Source: Candidatus Latescibacterota bacterium
GTDB lineage: Bacteria > Latescibacterota > UBA2968 > SICM01
Assembly (NCBI GenBank): GCA_965217865.1
Contig: CBDCJO010000001.1
Span: 96,001 to 160,000, forward strand
Reading direction: 5' to 3'
DNA: 64,000 bases
Every line of letters starts with the position of its first letter. The stretch's first letter is position 1. The position numbers and the translations under genes are program-made. Below the pieces are notes generated by a model, which did not search any database, was not told the origin of the DNA, and was given only the letters and a program-made list of their open reading frames with translations. Shown here piece after piece: positions 19,759-42,015 of the stretch.

Positions 19759-20751
19759 CTATGGAATCCTCCTGAACCGGGTATTCGCGAGAAAGACCTC
19801 CATGGTGATAAGCGCCAGGCTTGGGCCCAGGAAAAAACTAAAGAGATCTGCGTAATCGACATACTCCTTTGTCTTAATTTCCGTCTTTTCAAGTTGGCTG
19901 ATTTCGCGGTAAATAGCCTCAATCTTTGGGGAGTCTCCCCCACGGTAATAACGCCCCCCCGTGATTTGAGCGATCTCCTTGAGGACCTCTTCGTCGACTT
20001 CAACTTGCACCCGAACATAATGAGGGCCAAACAAGCCGTCAACCTTTTGCATGATAGTCCCTTCGCTGCCTGCTCCGATGGTGTATACTTTGACGCCGAC
20101 AGCTTCCGCGGCTTTTGCCGCAGTCACGGGATCGATCTCCCCCCTGTTATTCACCCCATCCGTCAGCAGAACAATGATCTTGCTTTTGGCCGGGGTCGTC
20201 CTCAGCCGATTCACAGCCGTAGCGACCCCCATCCCGATAGCCGTTCCATCCTCGATGATGCCGGTTTCAATGTTATCGAGCAGGGTTAAAAGAACGCCGT
20301 AATCGAGGGTCAGAGGGCATTGGGTAAAGCTCTCGCCCGCGAAGATCACCATCCCGATCCGGTCATTTGTTCGTCCCTGGATAAACTGTCTGACAGCCTC
20401 TTTGCAGACATCCAGGCGGGATTTTTTTTCATCCAGGTCTTTCGCCTCCATGCTGGTCGACACATCTACGGCAAGTATGATGTCGATTCCCTGAGTGAGA
20501 ACCTCTCGGCTCCGTTGCCCTAATTGTGGCCTAGCAAGGGCCAGGATCAGCAGGAGGAGCCCCGCGCACCGGAGGCCGATCAAGGTGTGGCGCCACTTTA
20601 ACGATACGGAAGGCCGAATTTGTTTGAGGACCCGGACGTCGGGGAAACGGAGGCTCCCCTTCTTTCTGGCTTCCTTTCTGATGTAAAGATAGACCAGCGC
20701 CGGGATAGCGAGTAGGAGGATAAGATAAAGGGGATCTTTGAGGTGAAACAT
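19759..20751 (-). CDS. batA: BatA-like VWA domain protein
   Basis: ALARPQ, DVSTSM, CPLTLDY, GTAIG, LLTDGVNN, TGGRYYR. Confidence 0.9.
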   Translation of the reverse strand: MFHLKDPLYLILLLAIPALVYLYIRKEARKKGSLRFPDVRVLKQIRPSVSLKWRHTLIGLRCAGLLLLILALARPQLGQRSREVLTQGIDIILAVDVSTSMEAKDLDEKKSRLDVCKEAVRQFIQGRTNDRIGMVIFAGESFTQCPLTLDYGVLLTLLDNIETGIIEDGTAIGMGVATAVNRLRTTPAKSKIIVLLTDGVNNRGEIDPVTAAKAAEAVGVKVYTIGAGSEGTIMQKVDGLFGPHYVRVQVEVDEEVLKEIAQITGGRYYRGGDSPKIEAIYREISQLEKTEIKTKEYVDYADLFSFFLGPSLALITMEVFLANTRFRRIP

Positions 20752-20773
20752 AATATTGGATCAGACTCATGAG

Positions 20774-21757
20774 TCACGGTCGGTTCTGGATCAGTGACTT
20801 TTCTGCGTCTCCTTCAGGAAGACGCATCGTTTCCCTGACAACATCCTTCGCCCGGTCGATGACCCCCTCCATCTCATCCTTCGGGGGAATGAGTTTGGCG
20901 AACTTGACAAGGTCGCAGTTGGACAGAAACCCGTCGAATTTGGCTACGGTGACGGGGTCCATCCGGGAGCTATTCATCTCAGAGAGGATCTCCCACGTCG
21001 TACGTTCCATCGCCTCTAAGGCATACCGTCGTTCGATATACCGGCGCATGGCATCCGAGACCAGGATGTAGTGCCTTTTGAACGCTCCTTTCTCAAGCAA
21101 ACCCAGAGCGGCGATTTTGTCGAATTCTCCAAGCTCGTCGATCGGCCTGGGAGGAGCTTTCTGAACCCCTCTCGCACCTGATCTCCTCGCCCGACGGCGG
21201 TGGATGAGATATATCGCAATCCCGATCAGGGAGAGCCCGATCAGAGTCCAAATCCACCATGGCAGGCCCCCGGCCAATTCCACGGGAGGCTTGACATCCT
21301 TTAGGACCTTCTCGTCCCCTTCTTCGATGACGCTTTGCACCGTGATCGGGATCGGATGGGTCCGGGCCTCTCCGGTGTCCCCTGAGGCCGTGACAAAAGT
21401 GATGGAGAGTGCCGGAATTTCGATGGCCCCCACCACATATGAGGTGAGGATATATCGGGCCGCCTCTTCGACTCCCCCCCCATCGACTTTCCTCAATTCC
21501 TCCTTTTCTACATCTCGAACCTCGAGTTCTCCGACCGCCTCGCGGATTTCGGGAAAGGACACGCGATCGGCCTCCCCCCGTCTGACAGTCAGTGAGTAGG
21601 TGATCGGATCACCCACCGTAATCGTCGCGCGGTCCACCTGACCCTCGACTGAGACCCCGCCAAAGCAGACCGAGGGGATCAGAAAACCCAGTGGAAAATA
21701 AAAATTACAGATTGCGAATCTCAAAAGCGACCTCACCCCGCCTCGCAAGCTCGGCAC
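20774..21757 (-). CDS. Bat-operon membrane protein with BatD-like N-terminal Ig domain (start uncertain)
   Basis: VDRATITVGDPITY, LKDVKPP, TM helix, MERTT.E, CDLVKFAK; the first codons come from a REP-like element. Confidence 0.75.
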   Translation of the reverse strand: MPSLRGGVRSLLRFAICNFYFPLGFLIPSVCFGGVSVEGQVDRATITVGDPITYSLTVRRGEADRVSFPEIREAVGELEVRDVEKEELRKVDGGGVEEAARYILTSYVVGAIEIPALSITFVTASGDTGEARTHPIPITVQSVIEEGDEKVLKDVKPPVELAGGLPWWIWTLIGLSLIGIAIYLIHRRRARRSGARGVQKAPPRPIDELGEFDKIAALGLLEKGAFKRHYILVSDAMRRYIERRYALEAMERTTWEILSEMNSSRMDPVTVAKFDGFLSNCDLVKFAKLIPPKDEMEGVIDRAKDVVRETMRLPEGDAEKSLIQNRP

Positions 21758-21766
21758 CCCTCTCCC
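21731..21766 (+). repeat. REP-like element, inverse copy at 54299-54334
   Basis: CCTCACCCCGCCTCGCAAGCTCGGCACCCCTCTCCC; 35/36 identical to the reverse complement of 54299-54334. Confidence 0.8.
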
Positions 21767-21772
21767 AACCTC

Positions 21773-21894
21773 ATTGAATATTGAATATTGGAAAATTGAA
21801 TATTTAAATAACTCAGGACTTTCTTATGTCCTTTATGGATCTTTTTGATCTTCAATCTTCAGTATTCAATCTTCAATCTTCAATTTCCCCCCCT
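21773..21894 (+). repeat. MITE-like element, copy 2
   Basis: Same ATTGAATATTGAATAT...CTCAGGACT...TTCAATCTTCAAT architecture. Confidence 0.7.
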
Positions 21895-21955
21895 GACCTC
21901 CGGCCTCCGACTTCTGACCCCTGCCTTTTCCCGCCCGTCTCACATTTTTCAATCG

Positions 21956-23296
21956 TCAATCGTCAATATTAAATCCTTCAATCTTCAATCGCTCTTCAAG
22001 ATTATCCCACCTGGCTTCATAGACGGTTCCCCGACGGTCTGTACGGGCATAAATTCTTTTGCCGATCTTCCTCCCCAGGGTCAGTGTGAGAACAGGCCCC
22101 TCGTCGCCTGTCAACCGCACGGTGAGCCCCGGTCGATCAAAACCGAATTCAGCGGGACGGTCCGGGGACTCAGACACGAACCTTTTCGCTTCAAGGCCGA
22201 GGATGCCCCTTAAGATCGCATCCGCCCGCTTCGGCGCATTCCCCTCATCAAGGGGGTCTGCCCCTCTCCATAATCCATCCTTGCCCCTTTCGAACGCGAC
22301 CGTCGTATCCCTCCCGACCAGCTCCATCTTTTTCACCATTTTTCGTTTGAACTCCGCGAACATTTTGTACCGATAGGCGTCCGTCCCGGCGGCGATCGTG
22401 TTGGCCAGGCTGGTGTCCACCGCGAACACGGGAGGCCTTCCGTCGAACCGCGCATAGCGCCACCCACCCGTGGTCTCACCGATATCCAGAGTCTTCCGGC
22501 TCATCTCCTCGCCTTCGTAAATCGTGATTGAAGCCTTTGCCGGGTTCAGCCCATACTTTTCAATATCCTGAGGGATCTCTTCGATGAACTTCCGGATCCT
22601 TGGACCCGTTAAAGACCAGAGCAACCGCTTCACCGTCGTCAAGTCCCCCCGGTCCTCCAGAGGGCGCTTCATCCTCAAGGTTTCGTTCTCTCGTTCAAGG
22701 ACGATCTGACCGTTCGAAGCTGAGATCTCGATCCGCCTCACACCCTCACGTTCGAACGGGATGGCCCTCTTATCTCGCAGGTCGTAGAGCGTCTTCGGCA
22801 TCCCCCTCAGAATGGTTGTACTGACCGTCAAAATCTCAGGCTTCCCTGAGAGCTTGGCGTAGCTTTGCCCATTCCACATCATACTGTTGCCAACCAGAAG
22901 GGTATCGGCTCCTATGCCATCCACATAGACCCGATGGGAAGGATTCAAGATTCCATATTCGGCCAACTGTTCCCGGTCCGCCCATTCAACGACCGATTCA
23001 ACCCGTTCAATCGCATTCATGCGCATGACGATATCGGTTATTGCCCGGCGGTCCCCTGCCGTCTTGACGGGGAAACTGATGACCCAGGAACTGTCCGGCC
23101 CCCACTCGCAGATGACAGTCGTATCCCCAGTGGAAACGGTCATCCCGATGACACCATCCCGATCAAACCGGAACAAGAGCCTCTCAAGCCTGGCCTTCTC
23201 CGCCCTGATTTTCTCTCCCTTGTAGTCGTAGAAGTACCAGAACACCCCTGCTGCGATCAGAATAACTGCCAGGATGCCCGTGACCCTGAAACTCAT
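21956..23296 (-). CDS. DUF4340 domain-containing protein
   Basis: N-terminal TM and three repeats with YG(L/I)..P and LRDK motifs; follows a GldG-type gene. Confidence 0.8.
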   Translation of the reverse strand: MSFRVTGILAVILIAAGVFWYFYDYKGEKIRAEKARLERLLFRFDRDGVIGMTVSTGDTTVICEWGPDSSWVISFPVKTAGDRRAITDIVMRMNAIERVESVVEWADREQLAEYGILNPSHRVYVDGIGADTLLVGNSMMWNGQSYAKLSGKPEILTVSTTILRGMPKTLYDLRDKRAIPFEREGVRRIEISASNGQIVLERENETLRMKRPLEDRGDLTTVKRLLWSLTGPRIRKFIEEIPQDIEKYGLNPAKASITIYEGEEMSRKTLDIGETTGGWRYARFDGRPPVFAVDTSLANTIAAGTDAYRYKMFAEFKRKMVKKMELVGRDTTVAFERGKDGLWRGADPLDEGNAPKRADAILRGILGLEAKRFVSESPDRPAEFGFDRPGLTVRLTGDEGPVLTLTLGRKIGKRIYARTDRRGTVYEARWDNLEERLKIEGFNIDD

Positions 23297-23313
23297 AACA
23301 CGACCTCAAAGAG

Positions 23314-23449
23314 ATTGAATATTTTATTGAATATCGGAGAATTGAATATTTGAAAAACTCACGACTTTCTTGTGGTCCTCTAATCTTCAATCCTTGATCT
23401 TTCGTCTCACGTCTCACGTCTCACGTTTGACGGTATTTCAATCTTCAAT
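23314..23449 (+). repeat. MITE-like element, copy 3 (with internal CGTCTCA heptamers)
   Basis: ATTGAATAT..ATTGAATATCGGAGAATTGAATATTTGAA..ACTCACGACT...TTCAATCTTCAAT. Confidence 0.65.
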
Positions 23450-23459
23450 TTCCAATGCC

Positions 23460-24872
23460 CTACCGCCTCCGCCACCACACCCCAAATCCCGCCAAAAAAA
23501 CCAGACCCGGTATAATACCTATGACCAGATAGCTGATAAAGCTCCCCTGCATCTTATTGAGGTTGATCGGATTGAAATCCGACTCGCGCCTCCGGATGGC
23601 GATCTGGTCCTCCTCCTCCAGGAGCCAGCTAACGGAATTCAGGAGGAGGTCCCCGTTGCCTTGGAAGTTGAAGAACTGATTGGTCGCGAAATCCGAATCT
23701 CCGATCACCACCAACCGCGTGTTCTCCCGAACGGGATCCTGGGCTGCGGCCTCAAATGTCTTGGGGGTCGCGGATACGGCTACGGCAAGGGGAACCGGCC
23801 CCTTTCGATCCACTTTGGGATCGAATACCACCTTAAGTTTACGGTCCTTCGGCCGGCGGAGGGGAGACAGGTCGCGCTCCCCCCAACTTGCATTGGAAGT
23901 CTTCACGATCTCTGTCGTCTCCGCGTTCGACTCGGAATCTTTGGGTGACGCGGTAACGGATCGGACGAGCATGAAACTCGTCATAACCCCCTTCATTTTT
24001 GCCGTAATCTCGTGATCCGCATATCGGGTGGCCACCGGCATGGAGTAGTCGAGTCCGAACAGCCCCCCCACACCGCTGTTATCCACCACGAAGTCCTCTT
24101 CCAACTTCACCGAATACGATTCCAACAGGCCTTCCAGGCCGCTCTGGTGATCGGGATCGAGGAGGAGGAGGAGTTTCCCGCCTTTATCGAGGTATGACCC
24201 GATGGAATCGACCTCGGTGGGCAACAGGGTTTTCTTGGGACCGGAGATCACAAGCAGGGAACAGTCATCGGGAAGGGACCCTACCCGAGCAAGAAGAAGA
24301 GGATCCGGCTTGACCAGATAGTTGAGTTCCTGAATGCGGTCCCGCGATACCCCCATCCCGTCCCGCTCCCGGCTGATCAGGGGGTTTTCCCCGTGCCCGG
24401 TCAGGAAGTAGACCACCTTCTGCCTGTCCCTGGTCACCCTGACCATGCCGTTCGTGATATGCCGCTCCTCTTCGAACCCAACCTGTTCCTCCCTCTCCCC
24501 CGAGATCAAGACGATCGTTTTATACTGCCGGATGTTATATCGCCTTGCCATGGCCGGGGCCTTGTCGGGGTCGACGAATTCATACGACACCCGGTTCGTA
24601 TGATAGTCGTATTGCTTCAATAACGGCTCGATATTTTTCCGCTCTTCCGGGCGGTAGAATGCTATCATCCGCACATCCCGGTCCAACCCTTTCAGGACGC
24701 TCACGGTTTCATCCGACAAGCTTCGGAAGCCCCCCCTCGTCATATCGACACGATGGCGGTACTTGTTCGAAAGATAGTTAGCGATGATGATGATGGCCAG
24801 GAAGATCAGGACGGACAAAAATACGTTGGAGCCGTAGACAAACACCCGGCCTTTTCGATGGAAAAACTTCAT
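23460..24872 (-). CDS. GldG-family ABC-type uncharacterized transport system component
   Basis: DMT...SLS.ET, VDPD, VYFLTGHGE, GGKLLLLLDP, VIGDSDF, N.DL..N...WL, C-terminal TM-WWRRR. Confidence 0.88.
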   Translation of the reverse strand: MKFFHRKGRVFVYGSNVFLSVLIFLAIIIIANYLSNKYRHRVDMTRGGFRSLSDETVSVLKGLDRDVRMIAFYRPEERKNIEPLLKQYDYHTNRVSYEFVDPDKAPAMARRYNIRQYKTIVLISGEREEQVGFEEERHITNGMVRVTRDRQKVVYFLTGHGENPLISRERDGMGVSRDRIQELNYLVKPDPLLLARVGSLPDDCSLLVISGPKKTLLPTEVDSIGSYLDKGGKLLLLLDPDHQSGLEGLLESYSVKLEEDFVVDNSGVGGLFGLDYSMPVATRYADHEITAKMKGVMTSFMLVRSVTASPKDSESNAETTEIVKTSNASWGERDLSPLRRPKDRKLKVVFDPKVDRKGPVPLAVAVSATPKTFEAAAQDPVRENTRLVVIGDSDFATNQFFNFQGNGDLLLNSVSWLLEEEDQIAIRRRESDFNPINLNKMQGSFISYLVIGIIPGLVFLAGFGVWWRRR

Positions 24873-24876
24873 GAGC

Positions 24877-25647
24877 TCAATGCCTCCATTTGCGTGATTC
24901 GAGAACCGTGTGGGTCAGGAACAGCCCAATGGCGATCAGGCTCATGAAAAAGGCCACGTCCCCCGTATCGATGACACCTCGTAGAAAGTCCCGCATGTGA
25001 GCGATGATCGACAAGTGCCTCAGGATGGCGCTGATCGGGGGTTGTGTCTGGTTCGCGGCAAAGTCGATAACCCACAACTGGATAAAGAAGAAGAAAGACA
25101 GGACCCCGGCCACGATCTGATTCTCCGTCATGGCGGAAGCCAGGATACCCATCGCCACGAAAGCCCCCCCGAAAAACAGGACGGCTGTGTAGGCCGCGGC
25201 CACCATCCCCCAGTCGATGTTCCCATAATATTCGGCGATCAGGATGTGTGAGAATCCGACAACCTCGATTCCAAGGAATAGGACCAGACATGCGGCAAAC
25301 TTTCCCATCAGGGTCTGGAAGGTGGTGATGGGAGAGGTAAGCAGGAGCTCGATGGTACCGGTCTTTTTCTCCTCGGCATAGAGGCGCATCGTCAGAAACG
25401 GGACCACCACCAGCCAGACGAAAAACTTCACCCCGAAATAAGTCGTAATGACCCACTCGTTCAGGTCCAGGTCCGGCATTCGTGTGGGTCGCTGGTAATA
25501 GGTCAGGCAAAGCTGGTTGAATTCCAACAGGAAATTCCTGTACATGAATCCCGAGAAAAGGAGCCAGACACCCGCCATGACATAGGCCACCGGGGAGGCG
25601 AAAAAGGAGCGTAATTCCTTTCCGAAGATTGCCGCGAAATTTTTCAA
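24877..25647 (-). CDS. ABC-2 permease (GldF-like)
   Basis: KELRSFFASPVAY, TMRLYAEEKKTGTIELLLTSP, TENQIVA. Confidence 0.9.
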   Translation of the reverse strand: MKNFAAIFGKELRSFFASPVAYVMAGVWLLFSGFMYRNFLLEFNQLCLTYYQRPTRMPDLDLNEWVITTYFGVKFFVWLVVVPFLTMRLYAEEKKTGTIELLLTSPITTFQTLMGKFAACLVLFLGIEVVGFSHILIAEYYGNIDWGMVAAAYTAVLFFGGAFVAMGILASAMTENQIVAGVLSFFFFIQLWVIDFAANQTQPPISAILRHLSIIAHMRDFLRGVIDTGDVAFFMSLIAIGLFLTHTVLESRKWRH

Positions 25648-26597
25648 GGGCTAACCTCCTCTTCGCTGGTGGTCACCTCCGCAAAGATATCCTCAAGACT
25701 CATCTCGATCCTCCGCATCTCGAGCAGCCCTATCTCCTTCTTTACAAGGTGGGCGGCCAGGCCGGGTCGTAGATCCGTGCCGAGGGGACTTTCGACATAG
25801 ACCCGGGTCCTTCCGTCCTCGGGTTCCGCCCGATCCAAAATCACATCGGTCACCCCTTCAACCTCCCGCAAAGCAGCCTCCGCTTCGTCGTACCCTCCCA
25901 CCACCTCCAGAAACACCCGCTCCTTCCCCTTCATCCGGGAGGTCAGGTTTTCCGGGGTATCCACCGCCGCGATCCTCCCTTTGTCGATGATCACCACCCG
26001 CTGGCAGGTAATGCTGACTTCCGGTAGGATGTGCGTACTGAGGATAACCGTGTGGTCCCCGGCCAGGGACCGGATCAACGTTCTTACTTCTCGAATCTGG
26101 TTGGGATCCAATCCGACCGTGGGTTCGTCAAGGACGATCACGTCGGGATTGTGGACGAGGGCTTGCGCAAGTCCCACCCGCTGCCGGTACCCCCTGGAGA
26201 GTTTTTCGATCAACCGGTCGGCCATGTGGTCCACGCTGCATCGGACCATCACGTCGTCCACCCGGGTGTTTCGTTGATCCCTGTCCACGCCCTTGATCTT
26301 GGACACGAAGAGAAGGTAGTTTCTGACAGACATATCCCGATAGAGCGGGGGCTGCTCGGGCATATAGCCGATCCTCTTCCGGACCTCGATGGACTGCGAA
26401 AAGACATCGAAGCCCGCGACCTTTGCCTCGCCGGAGGTCGCAGGCATATAACAGGTCAGGATCCTCATGGCCGTGGTCTTACCCGCCCCGTTCGGACCCA
26501 GAAACCCGAGAATCTCCCCTTTCTCAACTCGAAAAGAGATGTCATTCACTGCCGACACCCGTCCGTATCGCTTCGTAAGATTCGAAACCTCGATCAC
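25644..26597 (-). CDS. ABC transporter ATP-binding protein (GldA-like)
   Basis: GPNGAGKTT, LSRGYRQRVGLAQA, LDEPTVGLDP, STHIL. Confidence 0.92.
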   Translation of the reverse strand: MIEVSNLTKRYGRVSAVNDISFRVEKGEILGFLGPNGAGKTTAMRILTCYMPATSGEAKVAGFDVFSQSIEVRKRIGYMPEQPPLYRDMSVRNYLLFVSKIKGVDRDQRNTRVDDVMVRCSVDHMADRLIEKLSRGYRQRVGLAQALVHNPDVIVLDEPTVGLDPNQIREVRTLIRSLAGDHTVILSTHILPEVSITCQRVVIIDKGRIAAVDTPENLTSRMKGKERVFLEVVGGYDEAEAALREVEGVTDVILDRAEPEDGRTRVYVESPLGTDLRPGLAAHLVKKEIGLLEMRRIEMSLEDIFAEVTTSEEEVSP

Positions 26598-26627
26598 GAA
26601 TCAAACCTCCTCGGAAGGACACGGCGA

Positions 26628-27509
26628 CTAACGACGAAATCGCTTTGCCCTGGCCTGGAAAAACCGCATCAGCGGCTCAATATAGGGCTTGTCGGTCAGT
26701 ACATCCATCCTGTCAACACCCACTGAACGAAAGACCCGCTCACGGGAGACCCGGACGTCCTCGTTGGCTTGCCTGTAACGCCTCCTCACCCGGTCGTCGG
26801 ACGTGTCAACCAGGATCTCTTCCCCGGTCTCGGCATCCTCCAACTCTATGATTCCCACGTCAGGGAATTCCACCTCCCTGGGATCGGAGATCGTGACAGC
26901 CACCAGATCGTGTCGACGATTGGCCACCTTCAACGCAGATTCATAACCCGAGTCGAGAAAGTCGGAGAAAAGGAAAACAACGCTCCTCCGGGTCGTGACC
27001 TTGTTGAGGTAGTCCAGCGCGCCACCGATGTCCGTGCCCCGACCCCTTGACTGGAAATAGTAGAGCTCCCGGATAACGCGCAATACGTGTTTTCTCCCTT
27101 TCTTGGGTGGAATAAATTTTTCCACCTCGTCGGTAAAGATGATCAGTCCGACCCGGTCGTTGTTCTGGATGGCGGAGAACGCCAGAAGGGCGCACATCTC
27201 CACCCCGATCTCTCCCTTCATCCGGTCCACGGTGCCGAAGTCTCCGGAGGCACTGGCATCCACGATCAGAACGACCGTCAGTTCGCGTTCTTCATCGAAT
27301 ACCTTGACGAATGGGTGGCCCATACGGGCTGTGACGTTCCAGTCGATCGTGCGCACATCGTCCCCCGGCAGGTACTCCCGAACCTCCGCAAACTCCATCC
27401 CCACCCCCTTAAAGACCGATTGATATTCTCCTGAGAATACCGTATTGACCAGATGGCGAGTACGAAGCTCGATCGTTCGGACTTTTTTGAGGATTTCGTT
27501 CGGGATCAT
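26628..27509 (-). CDS. DUF58 domain-containing protein
   Basis: GMEFAEVREY.PGDDVRTIDWNVTAR, EERELT, DRVGL, SDF. Confidence 0.92.
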   Translation of the reverse strand: MIPNEILKKVRTIELRTRHLVNTVFSGEYQSVFKGVGMEFAEVREYLPGDDVRTIDWNVTARMGHPFVKVFDEERELTVVLIVDASASGDFGTVDRMKGEIGVEMCALLAFSAIQNNDRVGLIIFTDEVEKFIPPKKGRKHVLRVIRELYYFQSRGRGTDIGGALDYLNKVTTRRSVVFLFSDFLDSGYESALKVANRRHDLVAVTISDPREVEFPDVGIIELEDAETGEEILVDTSDDRVRRRYRQANEDVRVSRERVFRSVGVDRMDVLTDKPYIEPLMRFFQARAKRFRR

Positions 27510-27569
27510 GGGAGGATTGATCGCAAAGGGGAGAGGAGGAAGGAATCCTTCACGAAACTTTGAGAAGGA

Positions 27570-28559
27570 TCATGGAACATCCACGTGATCGAAAATACGC
27601 TGCACAATATCCTCGGATGTCGTCTCCTCGGCCTCCGCCTCGTACGTGACGATCACCCGGTGCCGCAATACATCCATACCGACGGCCTTCACATCCTCCG
27701 GAGTCACATACCCCCGTCGCCGGAGAAAGGCATGGGCACGGGCTGCCTGCGCCAGGTAGATCGAAGCCCTGGGCGATGCACCGTATTCAATCAAGGAACT
27801 CAGATCCGGCAGCCCACTCGCAGCTGGATCGCGCGTCGCGAACACAAGGTCAAGGATATAATCCTTGATCTTTTCATCCTCGTACACGCTGTTTACAACG
27901 GAGCGGGATTTGACGATGTCTTCAGGTGAGACAACGGCTTGAACCTCGGGGGGAGGGCCGGAGGACATCCGATCCATAATGGCCCTCTCCTCCTTGCGAT
28001 CCGGGTAAGAGACTCTTATTTTGAGCATAAAGCGGTCCAGTTGAGCCTCCGGAAGAGGGTAAGTCCCCTCCTGTTCGATCGGATTCTGCGTTGCTAGGAC
28101 GAGAAAGGGATCTTCCAGGGGAAAGGTCTTGTCCCCGATGGTCACCTGGCGTTCCTGCATCGCCTCCAGCATGGCGCTTTGGACCTTCGCGGGGGCGCGA
28201 TTGACCTCGTCGGCCAGGATCAGGTTGGCGAAGATGGGCCCCTTCTTCGGGACGAACTTACCGCTCCCCTGGTGAAAGATCATCGTCCCGATCAGGTCCG
28301 CTGGCAGGAGGTCGGGTGTAAACTGGATTCTGCCGAAGGAAGCCCGGACTGTCCGAGCGAGGGTGCTGACAGACAGGGTCTTAGCCAATCCGGGTACCCC
28401 CTCCAGAAGCACGTGGCCATTGCACAGCATGGCGATGATGAGCCTCTCCACCATGCCGTGCTGTCCGACGATGACCTTTCCGATCTCTGCAACCAGGGCT
28501 TCGACGAAGGCACTCTCCCGGTTCACCTGTTCATTGATGGCGACGATGTCTCTTCCCAT
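27570..28559 (-). CDS. moxR: MoxR family AAA+ ATPase
   Basis: LEGVPGLAKT, RIQFTPDLLPAD, ADEVNRAPAKVQSA, ATQNPIEQEGTYPLPEAQLDRF, GASPRA. Confidence 0.95.
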   Translation of the reverse strand: MGRDIVAINEQVNRESAFVEALVAEIGKVIVGQHGMVERLIIAMLCNGHVLLEGVPGLAKTLSVSTLARTVRASFGRIQFTPDLLPADLIGTMIFHQGSGKFVPKKGPIFANLILADEVNRAPAKVQSAMLEAMQERQVTIGDKTFPLEDPFLVLATQNPIEQEGTYPLPEAQLDRFMLKIRVSYPDRKEERAIMDRMSSGPPPEVQAVVSPEDIVKSRSVVNSVYEDEKIKDYILDLVFATRDPAASGLPDLSSLIEYGASPRASIYLAQAARAHAFLRRRGYVTPEDVKAVGMDVLRHRVIVTYEAEAEETTSEDIVQRIFDHVDVP

Positions 28560-28636
28560 CTCCACGAAGCGCTCCTCCAATTGTCAGTTCCAAGATCTTG
28601 ACTTCAACGTGGAAACTGGAACTGGAATTCTTCATG

Positions 28637-29251: not shown

Positions 29252-29614
29252 TTATCCCGATTTTTCTTCCTTTTTCGCCTTGCTCTTGGCGGCCCCTGAA
29301 TCCACCCCGGAATCCGAAGACTTCTTCGATCCTGAATCCTTCGATCCTGAATCCTTCGAGCCCGAATCCTTCGAGCCTGAATCTCCGCTCGAGGAGGAAG
29401 TCTCGGCCTTCGCCGCCTTCTTGTAGCTCTCACTGCGGTAATCGGTGATATAAAAGCCTGACCCCTTGAAAAGAAGCCCGGCCCCTGTCCCGATCAAGCG
29501 GCGGATCTTCCGTCGCTTGCATTTGGGGCAGGTTTTTTTCGGTTCTTCGGTGATGCTTTGAAACTCCTCAAACTTGTGACCGCAGGCTGAACACTCATAA
29601 TCATAAGTCGGCAT
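29252..29614 (-). CDS. FmdB-family zinc-ribbon protein with low-complexity tail
   Basis: MPTYDYECSACGH.FE..QSI....CPKC....FKGSGFYITDY; 15-bp tandem repeat encodes DSGSK x4. Confidence 0.9.
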   Translation of the reverse strand: MPTYDYECSACGHKFEEFQSITEEPKKTCPKCKRRKIRRLIGTGAGLLFKGSGFYITDYRSESYKKAAKAETSSSSGDSGSKDSGSKDSGSKDSGSKKSSDSGVDSGAAKSKAKKEEKSG

Positions 29615-29780
29615 GAAAAAAATCCTTCCAATGGTGGGGACAGGGGAGAAGTTGAAGAAGGTTCCCAAAATACCATATCAAGGAAATTAAATTTTTTACT
29701 CTATTTGAGTCAAGGTTTTTTTATGTATCTTTATCTTATTCGGTATCTTGCAGTTCTCCCCCCAACCACAGCGCCATTTC

Positions 29781-30800
29781 ATGTCCCCCGTCATCTCCGT
29801 CATTCTTCCGGCCTACAACGCGGCGGCCACCTTAGAGGAGGCGGTTGAATCCCTCCGTGCGGGAACCTACGAAGATTTCGAGATCGTTCTGATTGACGAC
29901 GGTTCAGAGGACCAGACGTGGGAAGTCATTCGACACCTGGCCTCGATGGACCCCCGGATCCGTCCGATCAAGACTCATCACAGCGGCCTGATCCACGCCT
30001 TGAATCTCGGCCTTTCGGAAGCCCGGGGAGAATTCATCGCCCGGATGGACGCGAATGATCTCTCCCATCCCCAACGCCTTGCCCTCCAGTTTTTGCTTCT
30101 CAACCGACGCCCCGAGGTGGTCCTGGCCGGATGCATGGTAGAGAGCTTTCCATCCTCCGAAATCAGGGAAGGTTTCCGGATCTACACGGACTGGATCAAC
30201 AGCCTGATCGAACCCGACGAAATCGCCAGGGAGATCTTCATCGAAAGCCCCATCTGCCACCCTTCCGTGCTGATACGGAAAGGGGAACTAACGCGGATCG
30301 GGGGCTACCGCGACCCCGGTTGGGCGGAGGACTATGACCTGTGGCTCCGGCTCAATCTGGCGGGGAAGCGTTTTGCCAAAGTCCCGAAAGTCCTCTTCTC
30401 ATGGCGCGATCACCCGGATCGGCTCACTCGAACGGATTCCCGATATTCCGTCGAAAATTTTCTTCGGGCCAAGGCCCACTACCTGGCCGCCGGTCCCCTC
30501 CGCGAAACCAGGTCGGCGATTGTATGGGGTGCGGGCCAGACGGGTCGTCGCCTGTCCAAACACCTCATTCACGAAGGCGTGAGACTTCTGGGGTTCATCG
30601 ATATCGACCCTTCAAAGATCGGTCGAACGCTCAGGAACGCCGCCATCCAATCGCCGGATACACTGCCGGACCTCCGCCGGAAGCATAAAGGCGTGATGAT
30701 TCTCAGTGCCGTGTCATCACGCGGTGCCCGAAACCTGATCCGCGGACATCTCAAAGGTTTGGATCTGGTCGAAGGGGTCGATTTCCTGTGTGTGGCCTGA
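29781..30800 (+). CDS. Glycosyltransferase family 2 with C-terminal Rossmann-like segment (QTGAL/B3GNTL1-like)
   Basis: ISVILPAYN, DDGS.D, RMDAND, EDYDLWLR, then VWGAGQTGRRL..FIDIDPSKIG..EGVDFL. Confidence 0.85.
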   Translation: MSPVISVILPAYNAAATLEEAVESLRAGTYEDFEIVLIDDGSEDQTWEVIRHLASMDPRIRPIKTHHSGLIHALNLGLSEARGEFIARMDANDLSHPQRLALQFLLLNRRPEVVLAGCMVESFPSSEIREGFRIYTDWINSLIEPDEIAREIFIESPICHPSVLIRKGELTRIGGYRDPGWAEDYDLWLRLNLAGKRFAKVPKVLFSWRDHPDRLTRTDSRYSVENFLRAKAHYLAAGPLRETRSAIVWGAGQTGRRLSKHLIHEGVRLLGFIDIDPSKIGRTLRNAAIQSPDTLPDLRRKHKGVMILSAVSSRGARNLIRGHLKGLDLVEGVDFLCVA

Positions 30801-30870
30801 TTGATCCTTGACCTTTGGAACCCGGAACGAATCTTTTGCAATCACCCTGTCCTTTTCGTAATATTTACCC

Positions 30871-31533
30871 ATGCCGGATCAGGAAAAAAACAACTCCCTC
30901 GTCATCACGGAGATCTACAAAAGCATACAGGGTGAATCCACCTGGACCGGATGCCCTTGCGTCTTCGTTCGGCTCTCCGGATGCGATCTTCGCTGCGGCT
31001 GGTGCGATTCCGAATATACTTTTTCAGGTGGGGATCGCATCGCCATCGACAAGATCGTCGAGGAGGTCGAAAACCACGGATGTCCTCTGGTCGAGATCAC
31101 CGGCGGTGAACCCCTCCTTCAGCCCGGCGTACATCCTCTCATCTCTACGCTGATCGATCGCGGTCATCGGGTCATCGTTGAGACCGGCGGTCACCTCGAT
31201 GTTTCCGTGATCGACCCCCGCGCCATCCGCGTGATCGACGTGAAATGTCCCGGAAGCGGCGAGTCCCAAAAGGTCCGCTGGAAGAATTTGGATGCCTTGC
31301 GGGAAACCGACCAGATTAAATTTGTCCTGGCCGATCGAGGGGATTACGATTGGGCGAAGGACATAATCAGGAGGCACAGCCTGAACGAACGCGTCGCTGT
31401 CCTCCTCTCCGTTGCCCACGGTATCCTTCCCCCCGCGGACCTTGCCGCCTGGATCCTTGAGGATCGTCTCAACGTCCGGCTGCAGATCCAGCTTCACAAA
31501 TACATTTGGAGTTCTGTCGAAACCGGGATATGA
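30871..31533 (+). CDS. queE: 7-carboxy-7-deazaguanine synthase QueE (radical SAM)
   Basis: EIYKSIQGEST..G.PCVFVRL.GCDLRCGWCDS.Y, EITGGEPLLQ, ETGG, DVKCPGSG, QLHKYIW. Confidence 0.9.
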   Translation: MPDQEKNNSLVITEIYKSIQGESTWTGCPCVFVRLSGCDLRCGWCDSEYTFSGGDRIAIDKIVEEVENHGCPLVEITGGEPLLQPGVHPLISTLIDRGHRVIVETGGHLDVSVIDPRAIRVIDVKCPGSGESQKVRWKNLDALRETDQIKFVLADRGDYDWAKDIIRRHSLNERVAVLLSVAHGILPPADLAAWILEDRLNVRLQIQLHKYIWSSVETGI

Positions 31534-37012: not shown

Positions 37013-39310
37013 ATGTCACGTCTATGCATCGTTATTGTCTGGGTGCTCTGCCTTCAGCATCCGGGAGACCTGGCCGCCGTTGAGGCCACGGATAAAATCA
37101 CGACCTTTGCGGGCGCGGTAGCGGGTGGATATTCAGGGGACGGAGGTCCCGCAAACGAGGCCAAGTTAACGGAACCGCGTGGCATTTTCATTGATGAAAA
37201 GGGGGTCATCTACATCGCCGACACTAACAATCATGTCATCCGCCGCGTGGGCATCGACGGGGTTATCACGACCGTAGCGGGAACTGGAGATCCGGGTTAT
37301 TCAGGGGACGGGGGACCCGCGACAGAGGCCCTCATACGAGATCCGTGGGACGTGGCCGTGGACTCAAGGGGGAACATGTACATCGCCGGCAACTATAATC
37401 AGGTCGTCCGCCGCGTGGACCCGGACGGGATCATCACGACATATGTGGGTACAGGAAAATTGGGCGAGGGGTCGGTGGGTGGGGAAGGTGCTTTTAACGG
37501 GGAAGACGGGGAGGCCACGAAGGTCGATCTCTTCCGGCCGCGAGGGTTGGCTTTGGATAGATCGGGGAACCTCTTCATCTCCGACTCGCAGAATCACCGT
37601 ATCCGCAAAGTGGGCTTTTTCACGGAATTCCTCACGACTGTTGCAGGGGCGGGACCTGGCGGAATTGTGGGTGGAGCGGGAGGGGTAGGTGATTTTGCAG
37701 GGGACGGAGAGTCGGCGACGGGGGAAGATACCAGGCTGGGAAACCCGTCCGGCATAGCTGTTAGTGCAGGCGGTGATATCTACATTGCCGACGTGAGAAA
37801 TCACCGCATCCGCCTGGTGAGCGTCGGGAGCATAACGACCTTTGCGGGAGGGAGGGGTGATCGGGCTTTGATCAGGGATGACGTTAGGCCCATGGAGGCC
37901 GACTTGTTCCAACCGCACGGCGTAGCCGTGGATGCAGAAGGAAGCGTCTACATCGCCGACACACTCAACCATCGAATCCGCATAGTGACCCAGGGGAGAA
38001 TCAAGATAATTGCGGGTTCTTCGGAAGATAAAGATATAGACGGTAATCCCGAGGGGAAAAATACCGGGGACGGAGGTCCGGCGAACCAGGCCCGGTTGAA
38101 CAGACCCTTCGGCGTGGCCGTGGATGCGGACGGCATAAACGTCTATTTCGTCGACACGGTAAACCACCTCGTCCGCCGCGTGGGACCCGACGGGATCCTC
38201 TCCCTCATGGTAACATCCCTGGCGTTCGACACGACCGGGGTCGATGGGAGTTCTGAGCAGACCCTGGAGGTCCATAACACAGGGATCGGGCCCCTGACCC
38301 TCACCGGGTTTTCGTTCAGCGGTACGGGAAGAAGGGATTACCAGGGGCAGGAGACCCTGCCCACGATCGACGCCGGGGGCATCGAGACCGTCACCGTGAT
38401 TTTCACCCCCTCCAGAGAAGGGGCCCGGCCGGCCACCATGTTTGTGGAATCCGACGCCGGGCACAAAGGGATCGACGTGACAGGGTTCGCCGTGGAGGGC
38501 GGTCCGGAGATCAGCCTGTCGGTTACCACCCTGGCGTTGGAGACCATCAAGGTGGGTGAGAACGCCGTTCAGGGGACGATCACGATCACGAACCCGGGCG
38601 TCCAGGATCTCTCCATCACCGGGATCACCCTGGAGGGAACCGATGTTTCTGAATTCGACGTTTCCCCCACCTCGGCCACGATCGCACCCGGGGGTTCGGA
38701 GACCATAACGATTACATTCGATCCTGCCTCTATCGGGAATAAGTCGATCACCATGCTCGTGGATCACAACGCCGGGGATCAACTCACCGTCGACCTGACC
38801 GCGGTCGCAGAGGGCGGACCGGTCCTCAGTCTTGCGGCCGATGTCGTGTCGTTCGACGGCGTGGAGGCGGAGACAACCGACCAGGGAACCTTCACGATTA
38901 ACAACCCGGGCACCGAGGACCTCACCATCACGGGCATCACCGTGGAAGGGACGCACGCGTCTGAGTACGAGGTCTCGACGACTCAGGTCACGATCGCTTC
39001 GGGAGGGTCCGAGACGATAACCGTGATATTTTCTCCGACATCTCCGGGGACCAAGTCGGCCAGCCTCCTGATCGACCACAACGCGGGGGATCCCACGACC
39101 GTTCGCCTGTCCGGGGTGGTTTATGCCGCCGGGACATCTCCGGACTTCGACGGGTCGGGCAATGTGAATCTGGATGATTTCTTCCTGTTTGCAGTCGCAT
39201 TCGGCCAGGAGCCGACAGGTGACAACGTCCGTTTCGACCTGGACGGCAACAACAAGATCGATTTTGACGACTTCTTCCTCTTCGCAGGGGCGTTCGGCAA
39301 GGATGTGTAG
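37013..39310 (+). CDS. Secreted NHL-repeat beta-propeller + three Ig-like (ASPM-SPD-2-Hydin-type) domains + dockerin/EF-hand-like tail
   Basis: Repeated GDGGPA..A.L..P.G.AVD..G..YIAD..NH.IR; (T/H)N.G...L.IT domains; DFDGSGNVNLDDFFLFA..F x2. Confidence 0.88.
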   Translation: MSRLCIVIVWVLCLQHPGDLAAVEATDKITTFAGAVAGGYSGDGGPANEAKLTEPRGIFIDEKGVIYIADTNNHVIRRVGIDGVITTVAGTGDPGYSGDGGPATEALIRDPWDVAVDSRGNMYIAGNYNQVVRRVDPDGIITTYVGTGKLGEGSVGGEGAFNGEDGEATKVDLFRPRGLALDRSGNLFISDSQNHRIRKVGFFTEFLTTVAGAGPGGIVGGAGGVGDFAGDGESATGEDTRLGNPSGIAVSAGGDIYIADVRNHRIRLVSVGSITTFAGGRGDRALIRDDVRPMEADLFQPHGVAVDAEGSVYIADTLNHRIRIVTQGRIKIIAGSSEDKDIDGNPEGKNTGDGGPANQARLNRPFGVAVDADGINVYFVDTVNHLVRRVGPDGILSLMVTSLAFDTTGVDGSSEQTLEVHNTGIGPLTLTGFSFSGTGRRDYQGQETLPTIDAGGIETVTVIFTPSREGARPATMFVESDAGHKGIDVTGFAVEGGPEISLSVTTLALETIKVGENAVQGTITITNPGVQDLSITGITLEGTDVSEFDVSPTSATIAPGGSETITITFDPASIGNKSITMLVDHNAGDQLTVDLTAVAEGGPVLSLAADVVSFDGVEAETTDQGTFTINNPGTEDLTITGITVEGTHASEYEVSTTQVTIASGGSETITVIFSPTSPGTKSASLLIDHNAGDPTTVRLSGVVYAAGTSPDFDGSGNVNLDDFFLFAVAFGQEPTGDNVRFDLDGNNKIDFDDFFLFAGAFGKDV

Positions 39311-39761
39311 GGAAGCAGAGGTCGGAGGCCAGAGGTCAGGGGTCGGGGAAAAGCAGAAGCAGGTGGCAGGGGCCAGGGGTCAGATCCACGTGATTCGTCG
39401 TTCGTGATTCGTGATTCGGATCATTTGCTTTTCCGATTCCCGAATCACGAACCACGATCCACGGCCTTTCCGATCCCCGAGTCACGATCGACGATCCACG
39501 GGTTTTTTGGCACATACCGCAGTAATCTGCACCATAACAAAAGACTCCCGAATGGGAGCCTTTGTTTGTCCTAAGTTATCCTAAGTTTCAAAACCGAGTC
39601 AACAACCAACCCCTACGCTGAATCTCCTTGGCACACCCCCCCCTCCGTAAATTTACATTGCCATTCATTATAAGGTTCCTTTATACAGAAGGAAGGCATC
39701 GATGGATGCCCAATCGTAAATCGAGGACAACCTACCGCCGCATATTCGGAGGAGATTCGTT

Positions 39762-42015
39762 ATGTCACGTCTATACATCGTTATTGTCTGTGTGCTCTGC
39801 CTTCAGCATCCGGGAATCCTGACCGCAGATGAGACCCCGAATATCTCGACCTTTGCGGGAACTGGAGACCCGGGTCTTTCAGGGGACGGGGGGGCGGTAA
39901 ATGAGGCCAAGCTGAGGACTCCGAGGGGCCTGTTCCTGGATGAAAGGGGGGTCCTCTACATCGCCGACTACGGCAATAACGTCATCCGCCGTGTGGGCCT
40001 GGACGGGATCATCGAGACGGTTGCCGGAAACGGAGATGAGGGTTTTTCCGGGGACGGGGGACTCGCTACGGAAGCCAAATTGAGCGGTCCGTCCGGTGGC
40101 CGTGGATTCAAAAGGGAACATATACATCGCCGACTCACAGAATAACCACATCCGCGTTGTGGACCCGGACGGGATTATCTCGACCTTTGCGGGTTCGGGA
40201 ACCACCCCAGCAGCCCAGAGGGGTTTGGTAGGTGGTTTTTCCGGGGACGGGGGACCCGCTACGGCGGCCGAGTTGAACAGTTGCGACGGCGTGGCCGTGG
40301 ATAGATCGGGGCACGTGTACATCGGCGACCGGAATAATCACCGCGTCCGCAAAGTGAACGCGTTCACCGGAGACATCTCGACCATCGCGGGTTCGGGCGA
40401 TAGAGCTTTCAGGGGGGACGGGGAACAGGCTACAGAGGCCTCGCTGGACGGCCCGACCGACATCGCGATAGTCGGGACGGACATCTACTTCACGGACGGG
40501 AGAAATCACCGCGTCCGCCTTATAGACGCCACCGGGGGCATCACGACCTTTGCCGGTGGACGGGGAGACAGGGCGCAACTCAGGACGGGCGTCAAGGCGA
40601 CGGATGCCTCCCTGTTCTGGCCGACCGGGTTAGCCGTGGATTCCAAAGGAAACGTCTACATCGCCGACTCCTTCAATCAACGCATCCGAGTTGTGGACAC
40701 AGGCAGGATCATCGATGCCGTTGCGGGATCGAAGTTCGATAAAGATGCTGACGGCAATCCCAAGGGCGCATATACCGGGGACGGGGGTCCGGCGAACCAG
40801 GCCGAGCTGAACCGACCCTACGGCGTGGCCGTGGATGCGGACGGCATAAATGTCTACTTTTCCGACGGGGAAAATAACGTCATCCGCCGCGTGGGCCCGG
40901 ACGGGATCATCGCGCTAACGGTCACATCCCTGACGTTCGACACGACGGGGGTCGGGGGGAGTTCGGAACAGACCCTGGAGGTCTCGAACATCGGGACCGG
41001 TCCCCTGACTATCACGGAGTTCACGTTCAGCGGTTCGGGAAGAAGGGATTACCAGGGGCAGGAGACCCTGCCCACGATCGACGCCGGGGGCATCGAGACC
41101 CTAACCGTGATTTTCGCCCCCAGCAGAAAAGGGGCCCGGTCTGCCGTCCTGTTCGTGGAATCCGACGTGGGGTCCAAAGGGATCGACGTGACAGGGTTCG
41201 CCGTGGAGGGTGGTCCGGAGATCAGCCTGTCTGCCTCCACCCTGTCGTTGGAGACCATCAAGGTGGGTGAGAACGCCGTTCAAGGCACGATCACGAACCC
41301 GGGCGTCTAGGATCTTTCGATCACTGCGATCACCCTTGAGGGGGCCGATGTTTCGGAATTCGACGTCTCCCCCACCGGGGTCACGATCGCACCCGGGGGG
41401 TCGGAGACCATAACGATTACATTCGATCCTGCCTCTATCGGGAATAAGTCAATCACCGTTCACGTGGATCACAACGCCGGGGATCAGCTGACCGTCGACT
41501 TGACCGCGGTCGCAGAAGGCGGACCGGTCCTCAGCCTGCCCGCCGATGTCGTGTCGTTCGACGGCGTGGAGGCGGAGACAATTGATCAGGGATCTTTCAC
41601 GATCACCAATCCGGGCACCGAGGACCTCTCCATCACCGCGATCACCGTGGGAGGGACACACGCTTCTGAGTACGAAGTCTCGACGACTCAGGTCACGATC
41701 GCTTCGGGAGGGTCTGAGACGATCACGGTGATATTTTCTCCGACATCTCCGGGGACGAAGTCGGCCAGCCTCCTGATCGATCACAACGCGGGGGATCCCA
41801 CGATTGTTCGCCTGTCCGGGGTCGTTTATGCCGTGGGGACGTCACCCGATTTCGACGGGACGGGCAAAGTGGATCTGGAGGATTTCTTCCTGTTTGCAGC
41901 CGCCTTCAGTCAAGAGCCGACAGGTGATAACGTCCGTTTCGACCTGGACGGCAACAACAAGATCGATTTTGACGACTTCTTCCTCTTCGCAGGGGCCTTT
42001 GGGAAGGATGTGTAG
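39762..42015 (+). pseudogene. Paralog of the NHL/Ig surface protein, disrupted
   Basis: Frameshift near 40095 (about 2 nt missing); CAG->TAG at 41308-41310 relative to copy 1; the frame continues to 42015. Confidence 0.8.

Follow-up and report, generated by a model that had tools for sequence, protein, structure and literature searches.

By sequence comparison, a family GT2 glycosyltransferase gene in the stretch of Candidatus Latescibacterota DNA that we analysed (64,000 nucleotides, "the window" below) is a real, specific and end-to-end homologue of animal QTGAL, the queuosine-tRNA galactosyltransferase also named B3GNTL1. The bacterial family to which it belongs is a strong candidate for bacterial queuosine (Q) glycosylation, which we judge reasonably probable; for the window gene in particular, the predicted hexosylation of queuosine in tRNA is an evenly balanced prospect.

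A two-domain homologue of QTGAL

The gene lies on the plus strand (29781..30800), from an ATG at 29781 to a TGA ending at 30800, and encodes 339 residues, with no internal stop in the translated frame: a GT-A core of approximately residues 1–240, followed by a C-terminal Rossmann-like domain. Relatives begin at the same methionine, and an alternative upstream start (TTG at 29748) would add 11 residues. PF00535 (Glycos_transf_2) matches the product with 108.6 bits (cut-off 23.3, E 4e-31), a weak Rossmann-type match covers residues 243–296, and the named relatives nearest to it carry the labels Latescibacteria or Handelsmanbacteria. A plus-strand spacer of 70 nt (30801..30870), in which scanning for consensus sites revealed neither terminator-like nor promoter-like sequences (counts of the scan were at chance level), separates it from a gene of 220 codons on the same strand (30871..31533, ATG at 30871). 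This is likely queE, encoding 7-carboxy-7-deazaguanine synthase: the product carries a radical-SAM domain, and its best model is QueE TIGR04349, at 283.6 bits just below the cut-off of 300. The arrangement reported in the earlier note, a GT2 gene 70 bp upstream of and co-directional with queE, is therefore confirmed. As context, a divergent FmdB-family zinc-ribbon gene (29252..29668, minus strand) lies upstream, as it also does in the two genomes of the same family; no RNA data matching the locus were listed. Elsewhere in the window, positions 37013–42015 hold repeated large open reading frames, the second copy apparently split over 39762–40145, 40096–41310 and 41464–42015, which we take to encode secreted-type proteins with NHL-like and Ig-like repeats and an EF-hand/dockerin-like tail. 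The minus-strand genes at 19759–28580 are presumably those of a MoxR AAA ATPase, DUF58 and von Willebrand A (Bat-like) proteins and a Gld-like ABC transporter.

QTGAL sequences for comparison were obtained by scanning metagenomes with a short motif (60 loci), which yielded intron-free two-domain open reading frames, one of which then served as the query that retrieved NCBI proteins named queuosine-tRNA galactosyltransferase or B3GNT-like protein 1. The window protein aligns colinearly with a named queuosine-tRNA galactosyltransferase over residues 5–335 (24% identity, 350 columns, E 5e-25), and profile–profile comparison of the bacterial family with QTGAL extends over 329 columns (probability 100, E 5e-40), so that the homology spans both domains, the C-terminal one included. 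Among 41 genomes searched with the QTGAL profile, the top hit was the orthologue in 20/20 of those with a family gene; a library-wide search with the same profile returned, among the 10 of its best 150 hits that were looked up, 2 eukaryotic sequences and others without a taxon, so that a prokaryotic group closer to QTGAL may exist. Where along the protein this signal resides is informative. The N-terminal QTGAL sub-profile does not discriminate (the window gene ranks 5 in its own genome, and eukaryotic N-terminal profile medians are 61 bits for the family vs 58 bits for other GT2s), while the middle and C-terminal sub-profiles place the window gene first of 69,493 open reading frames, albeit weakly (E 0.12 and 0.023). 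The eukaryotic middle profile reaches at least 15 bits in 146/147 family reading frames vs 16/133 other GT2s, and the eukaryote-only C-terminal profile does so in 108/147 vs 0/133; animal-only sub-profiles gave the same direction.

Two motifs sharpen the distinction. YxxWxN is found in 145/147 family reading frames and 123/124 eukaryotic proteins, and W-x-A-G-x-x-G in 109/147 and 122/124, with neither present in any of 131 other GT2s (0/131 for each), a set drawn from the window genome, related genomes and viral contigs without enrichment for GT2s bearing C2185-like domains, which the family C-terminus resembles. Many eukaryote-type (protist-like) homologues read W-G-A-G, as the bacteria do. 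All the motifs quoted in the earlier note occur in the window translation, and each human motif that it cited is found in PMC7185993 supplement file 3 under human B3GNTL1; its suggestion of a resemblance to QTGAL beyond generic GT2 likeness holds, specifically and from end to end.

The AlphaFold model of the window protein shows two domains (pLDDT 95.5). In a fold search its core matched chondroitin polymerase 2z86 with a Z of 24.5, which together with the PF00535 match identifies a GT2 protein of GT-A fold. The family keeps the donor-side residues, and the xED motif, E183-D184 (30327..30332, plus strand), is fixed in 28/28 bacterial rows, Asp184 being the predicted catalytic base of an inverting GT-A enzyme. 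Y135-x-x-W138-x-N140 (30183..30200, plus strand) sits on a helix and is a predicted part of the acceptor site; the bacterial family has it in common with eukaryotic QTGAL-type proteins only. The Rossmann-like domain (residues 242–339; 30504..30797, plus strand) matches 3nkl_B (Z 14.2, rmsd 1.9, 94 aligned) and carries W-G-A-G-x-x-G, D-x-D, K-I and a terminal E-G-x-D; domains of this type (C2185-like/CoA-binding/PglD_N) are not unique to the bacterial family. Residues 211–339 have a net charge of +10 in the window protein, which is also the median over 258 members, and this basic C-terminal domain is the predicted tRNA-binding part. Helices and strands nearly match between the two AlphaFold models compared for the QTGAL link. 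Fold searches of the PDB copy found no solved structure spanning both domains, and the ESM Atlas listed only bacterial clusters, with no link to QTGAL.

Phylogenies of the GT core were less consistent. A first quick tree placed two long-branch paralogues inside the bacterial family, and a second put eukaryotes and the bacterial family on one side with support of 77. A careful tree of a 210-column core joined the eukaryotes to nine other GT2s (100/100) and not to the bacterial family, although an AU test did not reject eukaryotes plus bacterial family as one clade (p-AU 0.166). Of the 84 first-tree rows, 27 were absent from the second quick tree and the careful tree, namely outgroup rows (10 on long branches, 4 redundant) together with 6 rows from eukaryotes and 7 from bacteria; 15 rows of eukaryote type were new in these trees. 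Because these trees are unstable and the eukaryotic stem is very long (1.4–1.6 changes per column), we base the case for homology on the second domain and the motifs that bacterial family and QTGAL share.

Distribution, surroundings and the queuosine pathway

Full-length relatives with 43–70% identity occur across several phyla, the best 80 of 473 confirmed stretches bearing record titles from Latescibacterota, Chloroflexota, Myxococcota, Desulfuromonadales, Armatimonadota, Acidobacteriota, Verrucomicrobiota and Desulforudis. Cultured carriers exist, as complete Sorangium chromosomes are among the relatives. The distribution is patchy: 20/41 related genomes have a family gene, as do 14/251, 17/228, 17/151 and 45/401 genomes in four phylum samples, where scoring was limited to the best few candidates of each genome; 2 of the 45 matches (L389, L390) span just the GT core and probably lie outside the family. 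Genome tables show one full-length member per genome. One orthologue (L020, G031:C30) is split by a frameshift and a stop. Among the 80 best viral loci there was no full-length family member, and, as weak evidence against such fusions, none of 1227 candidate proteins of 595–2000 aa was a fusion to a Q enzyme, a size range that misses a CYTH (triphosphate tunnel) domain fused in front of the glycosyltransferase in one clade (L296–L304, G555–G563; open frames of 553–591 aa).

The surroundings do not resemble those of a polysaccharide cluster, with its other glycosyltransferases and export genes. None of 59 loci of at least 12 kb holds a second GT2 near the family member (0/59), against a baseline of 6/24 GT2s of the window genome with another GT2 within 8 kb, and no other glycosyltransferase, flippase or polymerase family was found among 116 scanned neighbour representatives, GT-B enzymes farther away being uncounted. 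NDP-sugar epimerase genes lie near 10/80 loci and dehydrogenase genes near 6/80. Neighbours otherwise differ by lineage; named here as occurrences and not as an enrichment, they include map, MscS and a thioesterase, Leu/Phe-tRNA-protein transferase with rbfA/infB, tsaE, a TtuA-like gene, RF3, PrmA and msrA. At one locus a TtuA/TtcA-like tRNA thiolase gene (L311:504-1445) is directly upstream of the family member; at another a tRNA-Sec gene (L312:3049-3128) follows a DUF4416 gene downstream of it.

The pairing with queE proved to be local. Using the window genome's own Que proteins as queries, we searched 191 loci (19+34+30 flanked by 1.5 kb, 15 by ~3 kb, 13 by up to 7 kb and 80 by up to 8 kb, some from the same genome) and found queE adjoining the family gene only in a pair of same-family genomes, each of which had been fetched twice; a weak radical-SAM match at L063 (E 5e-6) was not counted as queE. 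No tgt, queA, queC, queF or queG lay beside a family gene in these loci, which include no group-wide sample of Planctomycetota. The loci thus show no clustering with queuosine genes that is conserved from lineage to lineage, and we reject a GT–queE operon as a conserved system: the "system" proposed in the earlier note was not borne out beyond the window genome and its two relatives. The adjacency is a lineage-limited arrangement and weak evidence, and QueE is a same-pathway neighbour only, not a partner of the glycosyltransferase.

The window genome has matches to tgt, queA, queC, queE, queF and queG, as well as Tyr, Asp, Asn and His tRNA genes; queD was not confirmed there. Two tandem queC paralogues stand downstream of atpD/atpC (G000:C1:23722-25143; L163, L164), with queF ~2 kb farther, and queG is directly upstream of a gene that we take to be miaB-like (G000:C2:4672959-4676192; L170). 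Its tgt matches are two family members, the second of which is a divergent gene between rsmI and an Rmt-like 16S rRNA methyltransferase gene (G000:C2:4697732-4701790; L162). This divergent TGT scores 302 bits on TIGR00430 (cut-off 306.75) and has the pocket loop G-G-W-P, and the methyltransferase scores 196.5 bits against a cut-off of 250. TGTs of this type recur in several genomes of Chloroflexota and Latescibacterota; in L190 and L192 the gene that comes next again looks similar.

Carrier genomes generally have a TGT. A TGT-family match was present in 104/104 carrier handles tested (1+5+18+80), a count in which some handles duplicate genomes and from which eight carriers beyond the set of 80 and the new carriers of the later sample (45/401) are left out. 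In G001 the match is of the divergent second type alone, while G009, G051 and G090 show no more than TGT pieces. In G539–G541, G558 and G563–G567 the Pfam TGT match falls in two pieces in one frame, suggesting an insertion near model position 90–100. Since TGT is common anyway (213/251 genomes at E <= 1e-110), this co-occurrence is weak evidence. We rejected queA as a marker, as it does not track the glycosyltransferase: it is present in 47/50 carriers of one set and 2/14 in the Chloroflexota sample, against a background of 174/251.

The 12 carriers without queA are related, with near-identical TGT motifs and, in most, shared synteny; full-length queC was absent from 5/5 of them tested. Their TGT, above the Tgt cut-off in the one tested, has G-G-S-L-G in place of G-G-L-A-V-G and Leu in place of the pocket Cys. 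According to PMC10723273, queuine-salvaging TGTs typically read GG[LS][AS]G and Val blocks queuine, and tgt-only genomes can insert preQ1. The motif of the queA-less carriers lacks the Val, yet does not follow the printed pattern letter for letter; for this reason, and because of the preQ1 precedent, we infer only provisionally that their TGT would insert queuine. Q_salvage (PF10343) had no match in 5 genomes, a negative that is uninformative because the control had none anywhere either. All 12 carry QTMAN_N, which we rejected as a specific partner of the glycosyltransferase; it is also in 5/5 related genomes without the QTGAL-like gene, and the overlap is hence group-wide. This group of queA-less Chloroflexota, whose TGT pocket is altered and which has QTMAN_N whether or not the QTGAL-like gene is present (L175–L186 and L334–L345), offers natural material for testing bacteria for manQ and galQ. 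Its carriers fit an enzyme acting on finished Q in tRNA and not on precursors, in one lineage, and weaken the earlier suggestion of another deazaguanine product as the acceptor.

Proposed function and competing explanations

As we picture it, the two-domain enzyme would take a hexose from a nucleotide-sugar and attach it to the queuosine cyclopentenediol, at position 34 of a tRNA with a GUN anticodon. The N-terminal half would bind UDP-sugar and a metal at the DxD position, the YxxWxN helix would line the acceptor pocket, and the basic C-terminal domain would hold the anticodon arm; Asp184 would deprotonate a queuosine hydroxyl and so give a beta-glycoside, as in QTGAL. By analogy with QTGAL, the sugar might be galactose and the tRNA tRNA-Tyr. 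According to bioRxiv 10.64898/2026.06.28.735034, QTGAL uses UDP-galactose to galactosylate the homoallylic hydroxyl of Q in an SN2-type step that yields a beta-galactoside; PMC7185993 describes inverting GT-A enzymes as using the xED Asp as base. We also entertain, tentatively, a broader picture: hexosyl-Q may be no animal speciality and be made by a widespread bacterial family; one Chloroflexota group with an animal-like set (a queuine-salvaging TGT with QTGAL-like and QTMAN-like enzymes) may make both galactosyl-type and mannosyl-type Q; and eukaryotic QTGAL may descend from the bacterial family. This is possible, though doubtful as a whole.

The window copy departs from its family at the DxD position, D90-A-N92-D93 (30048..30059, plus strand), where Asn, encoded by AAT at 30054–30056, replaces the second Asp. 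The CAZy GT2 metal/donor motif is thus incomplete here and intact in 264/267 family sequences; the 2 with Asn are the window gene and the 98%-identical P0003, which also reads DAND, and 1 was not scored. The second Asp is kept in all 23 aligned eukaryotic rows. The earlier note had flagged DAND for DADD and asked for the reads to be checked: a contig from run X2 agrees with window 29795–30102 with zero differing letters; the best-matching run may be the source sample itself, of which X2 need not be independent. As P0003 has the same Asn and the X2 contig matches across the site, we take AAT at 30054 as natural and reject a sequencing error. In the alignment, position 92 falls on the second Asp in the DSD motif of chondroitin polymerase, where that Asp is a metal ligand. 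A second change, Q28G, likewise affects an otherwise nearly fixed position, and the two may together lower the activity of the window copy. That the window copy encodes an active queuosine-glycosylating enzyme is, on its sequence, a finely poised question, with neither answer favoured.

That the family glycosylates Q-tRNA with the window copy weakened or dead through D92N is unlikely. Such a loss would account for the substitution of a near-invariant metal-ligand position and for the second altered site, but the frame is intact and the other catalytic and family motifs are kept, the same allele persists in P0003, and Asn is able to bind metal, some active glycosyltransferases having DxN. More serious, though still with only a modest chance of being right, is the explanation that the bacterial proteins share ancestry with QTGAL and act on another soluble acceptor (in a different RNA modification, or a protein or small metabolite with a cis-diol), specificity for queuosine being a eukaryotic development. 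The long branch to eukaryotes, the variable neighbours without a Q theme and the CYTH fusion with no obvious Q link in one clade all point that way. The residues shared with QTGAL, however, extend outside the generic donor half, to where acceptor recognition is expected, and no TGT-less carrier appeared among the 104 handles tested, both of which favour Q-tRNA as the acceptor.

An ordinary cell-envelope glycosyltransferase (for a polysaccharide, glycolipid or protein glycan), like QTGAL merely through shared GT2 ancestry, would be expected to find its best matches among polysaccharide GT2s, as the window protein does in NCBIfam and the PDB, and to have NDP-sugar epimerase or dehydrogenase genes near some members (10/80 and 6/80 loci); the careful tree, which puts eukaryotes with other GT2s, also leans towards it. 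Those matches are all below cut-off or limited to the core, though, and such an enzyme is quite improbable given the single copy per genome at 43–70% identity across several phyla, the absence of a second GT2 from all 59 wide loci and diagnostic motifs that 131 other GT2s lack. Least credible of all is a glycosyltransferase working with QueE on a free 7-deazaguanine precursor or a deazaguanine in DNA, to which the queE adjacency in the window genome and its two same-family genomes, the tandem queC pair and the second TGT-like gene would be relevant: the gene is kept in 12 genomes without queA, with no full-length queC in 5/5 tested, no full-length member was among the 80 best viral loci, and preQ0 offers no hydroxyl acceptor. 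Hexosylation of queuosine in tRNA is the function we prefer for the family. If true, it would give many phyla a tRNA modification new to bacteria and would bear on the origin of QTGAL, and small soluble bacterial proteins would serve structural and mechanistic study of an enzyme without a match in the PDB copy searched. Hexosyl-Q is directly testable, as cultured carriers exist and LC-MS for Q +162 Da is routine.

Comparison with known systems

PMC11755703 and PMC12313893 place QTGAL and QTMAN in mammals, and PMC10690763 assigns sugar-Q to vertebrates and gluQ to bacteria only. The B3GntL pattern group in the supplement of PMC7185993, file 13 excepted, comprises 683 sequences with 0 from Bacteria, the single cyanobacterial row belonging to another pattern group (a 1181-aa TPR protein). 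The strings "galactos", "mannos" and "QTGAL" are absent from 300,000 characters of PMC13602947, a 2026 compendium of bacterial RNA modifications, and literature searches whose coverage excluded the QTGAL discovery paper (Zhao et al. 2023) found no paper on bacterial QTGAL homologues or sugar-Q.

With soluble polysaccharide GT2s (K4CP chondroitin polymerase, SpsA, EpsE, TarS) the window protein shares the GT-A core (Z 22–24.5), the DxD motif (DAND in the window copy) and the xED motif, but in sequence searches these match residues 1–240 only and far below cut-offs (EpsE 111/450 bits). GluQ-RS (YadB), the glutamyl-queuosine synthetase, is the one bacterial elaboration of the Q cyclopentenediol described in PMC10690763 and PMC13602947; its fold is unrelated and it adds glutamate, and it was below cut-off in the window genome and over it in 1/5 carriers tested. 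QTMAN/GTDC1 (Pfam QTMAN_N, PF12038) also glycosylates Q34, as outlined in the literature on it, but unlike the window protein it is of a different family, with a GDP-mannose donor and tRNA-Asp as substrate. QTMAN_N-family members co-occur with the glycosyltransferase in 14/76 carriers tested and are present in 0/4 further non-carriers, and QTMAN_N was not found in the window genome, other carriers serving as positive control.

QTGAL/B3GNTL1 (CAZy GT2; GT2-B3GntL of PMC7185993) is the closest counterpart. QTGAL transfers galactose from UDP-Gal to Q34 of tRNA-Tyr. The bacterial family differs from it in identity (only ~24%), in lacking the insertion after the C-terminal D-x-D-x-x-K-I, in reading I-E-S-P-x-x-H-P-S for the QTGAL stretch T-S-H-G-P-T-V-I-M-P-T-W-F and in a more basic C-terminal part (median +10 vs +4.5), and the window copy further in D92N. 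What the two have in common is the two-domain build and length, the xED base, YxxWxN, W-x-A-G-x-x-G, D-x-D and the terminal E-G-x-D, together with reciprocal best-hit behaviour in the genomes tested.
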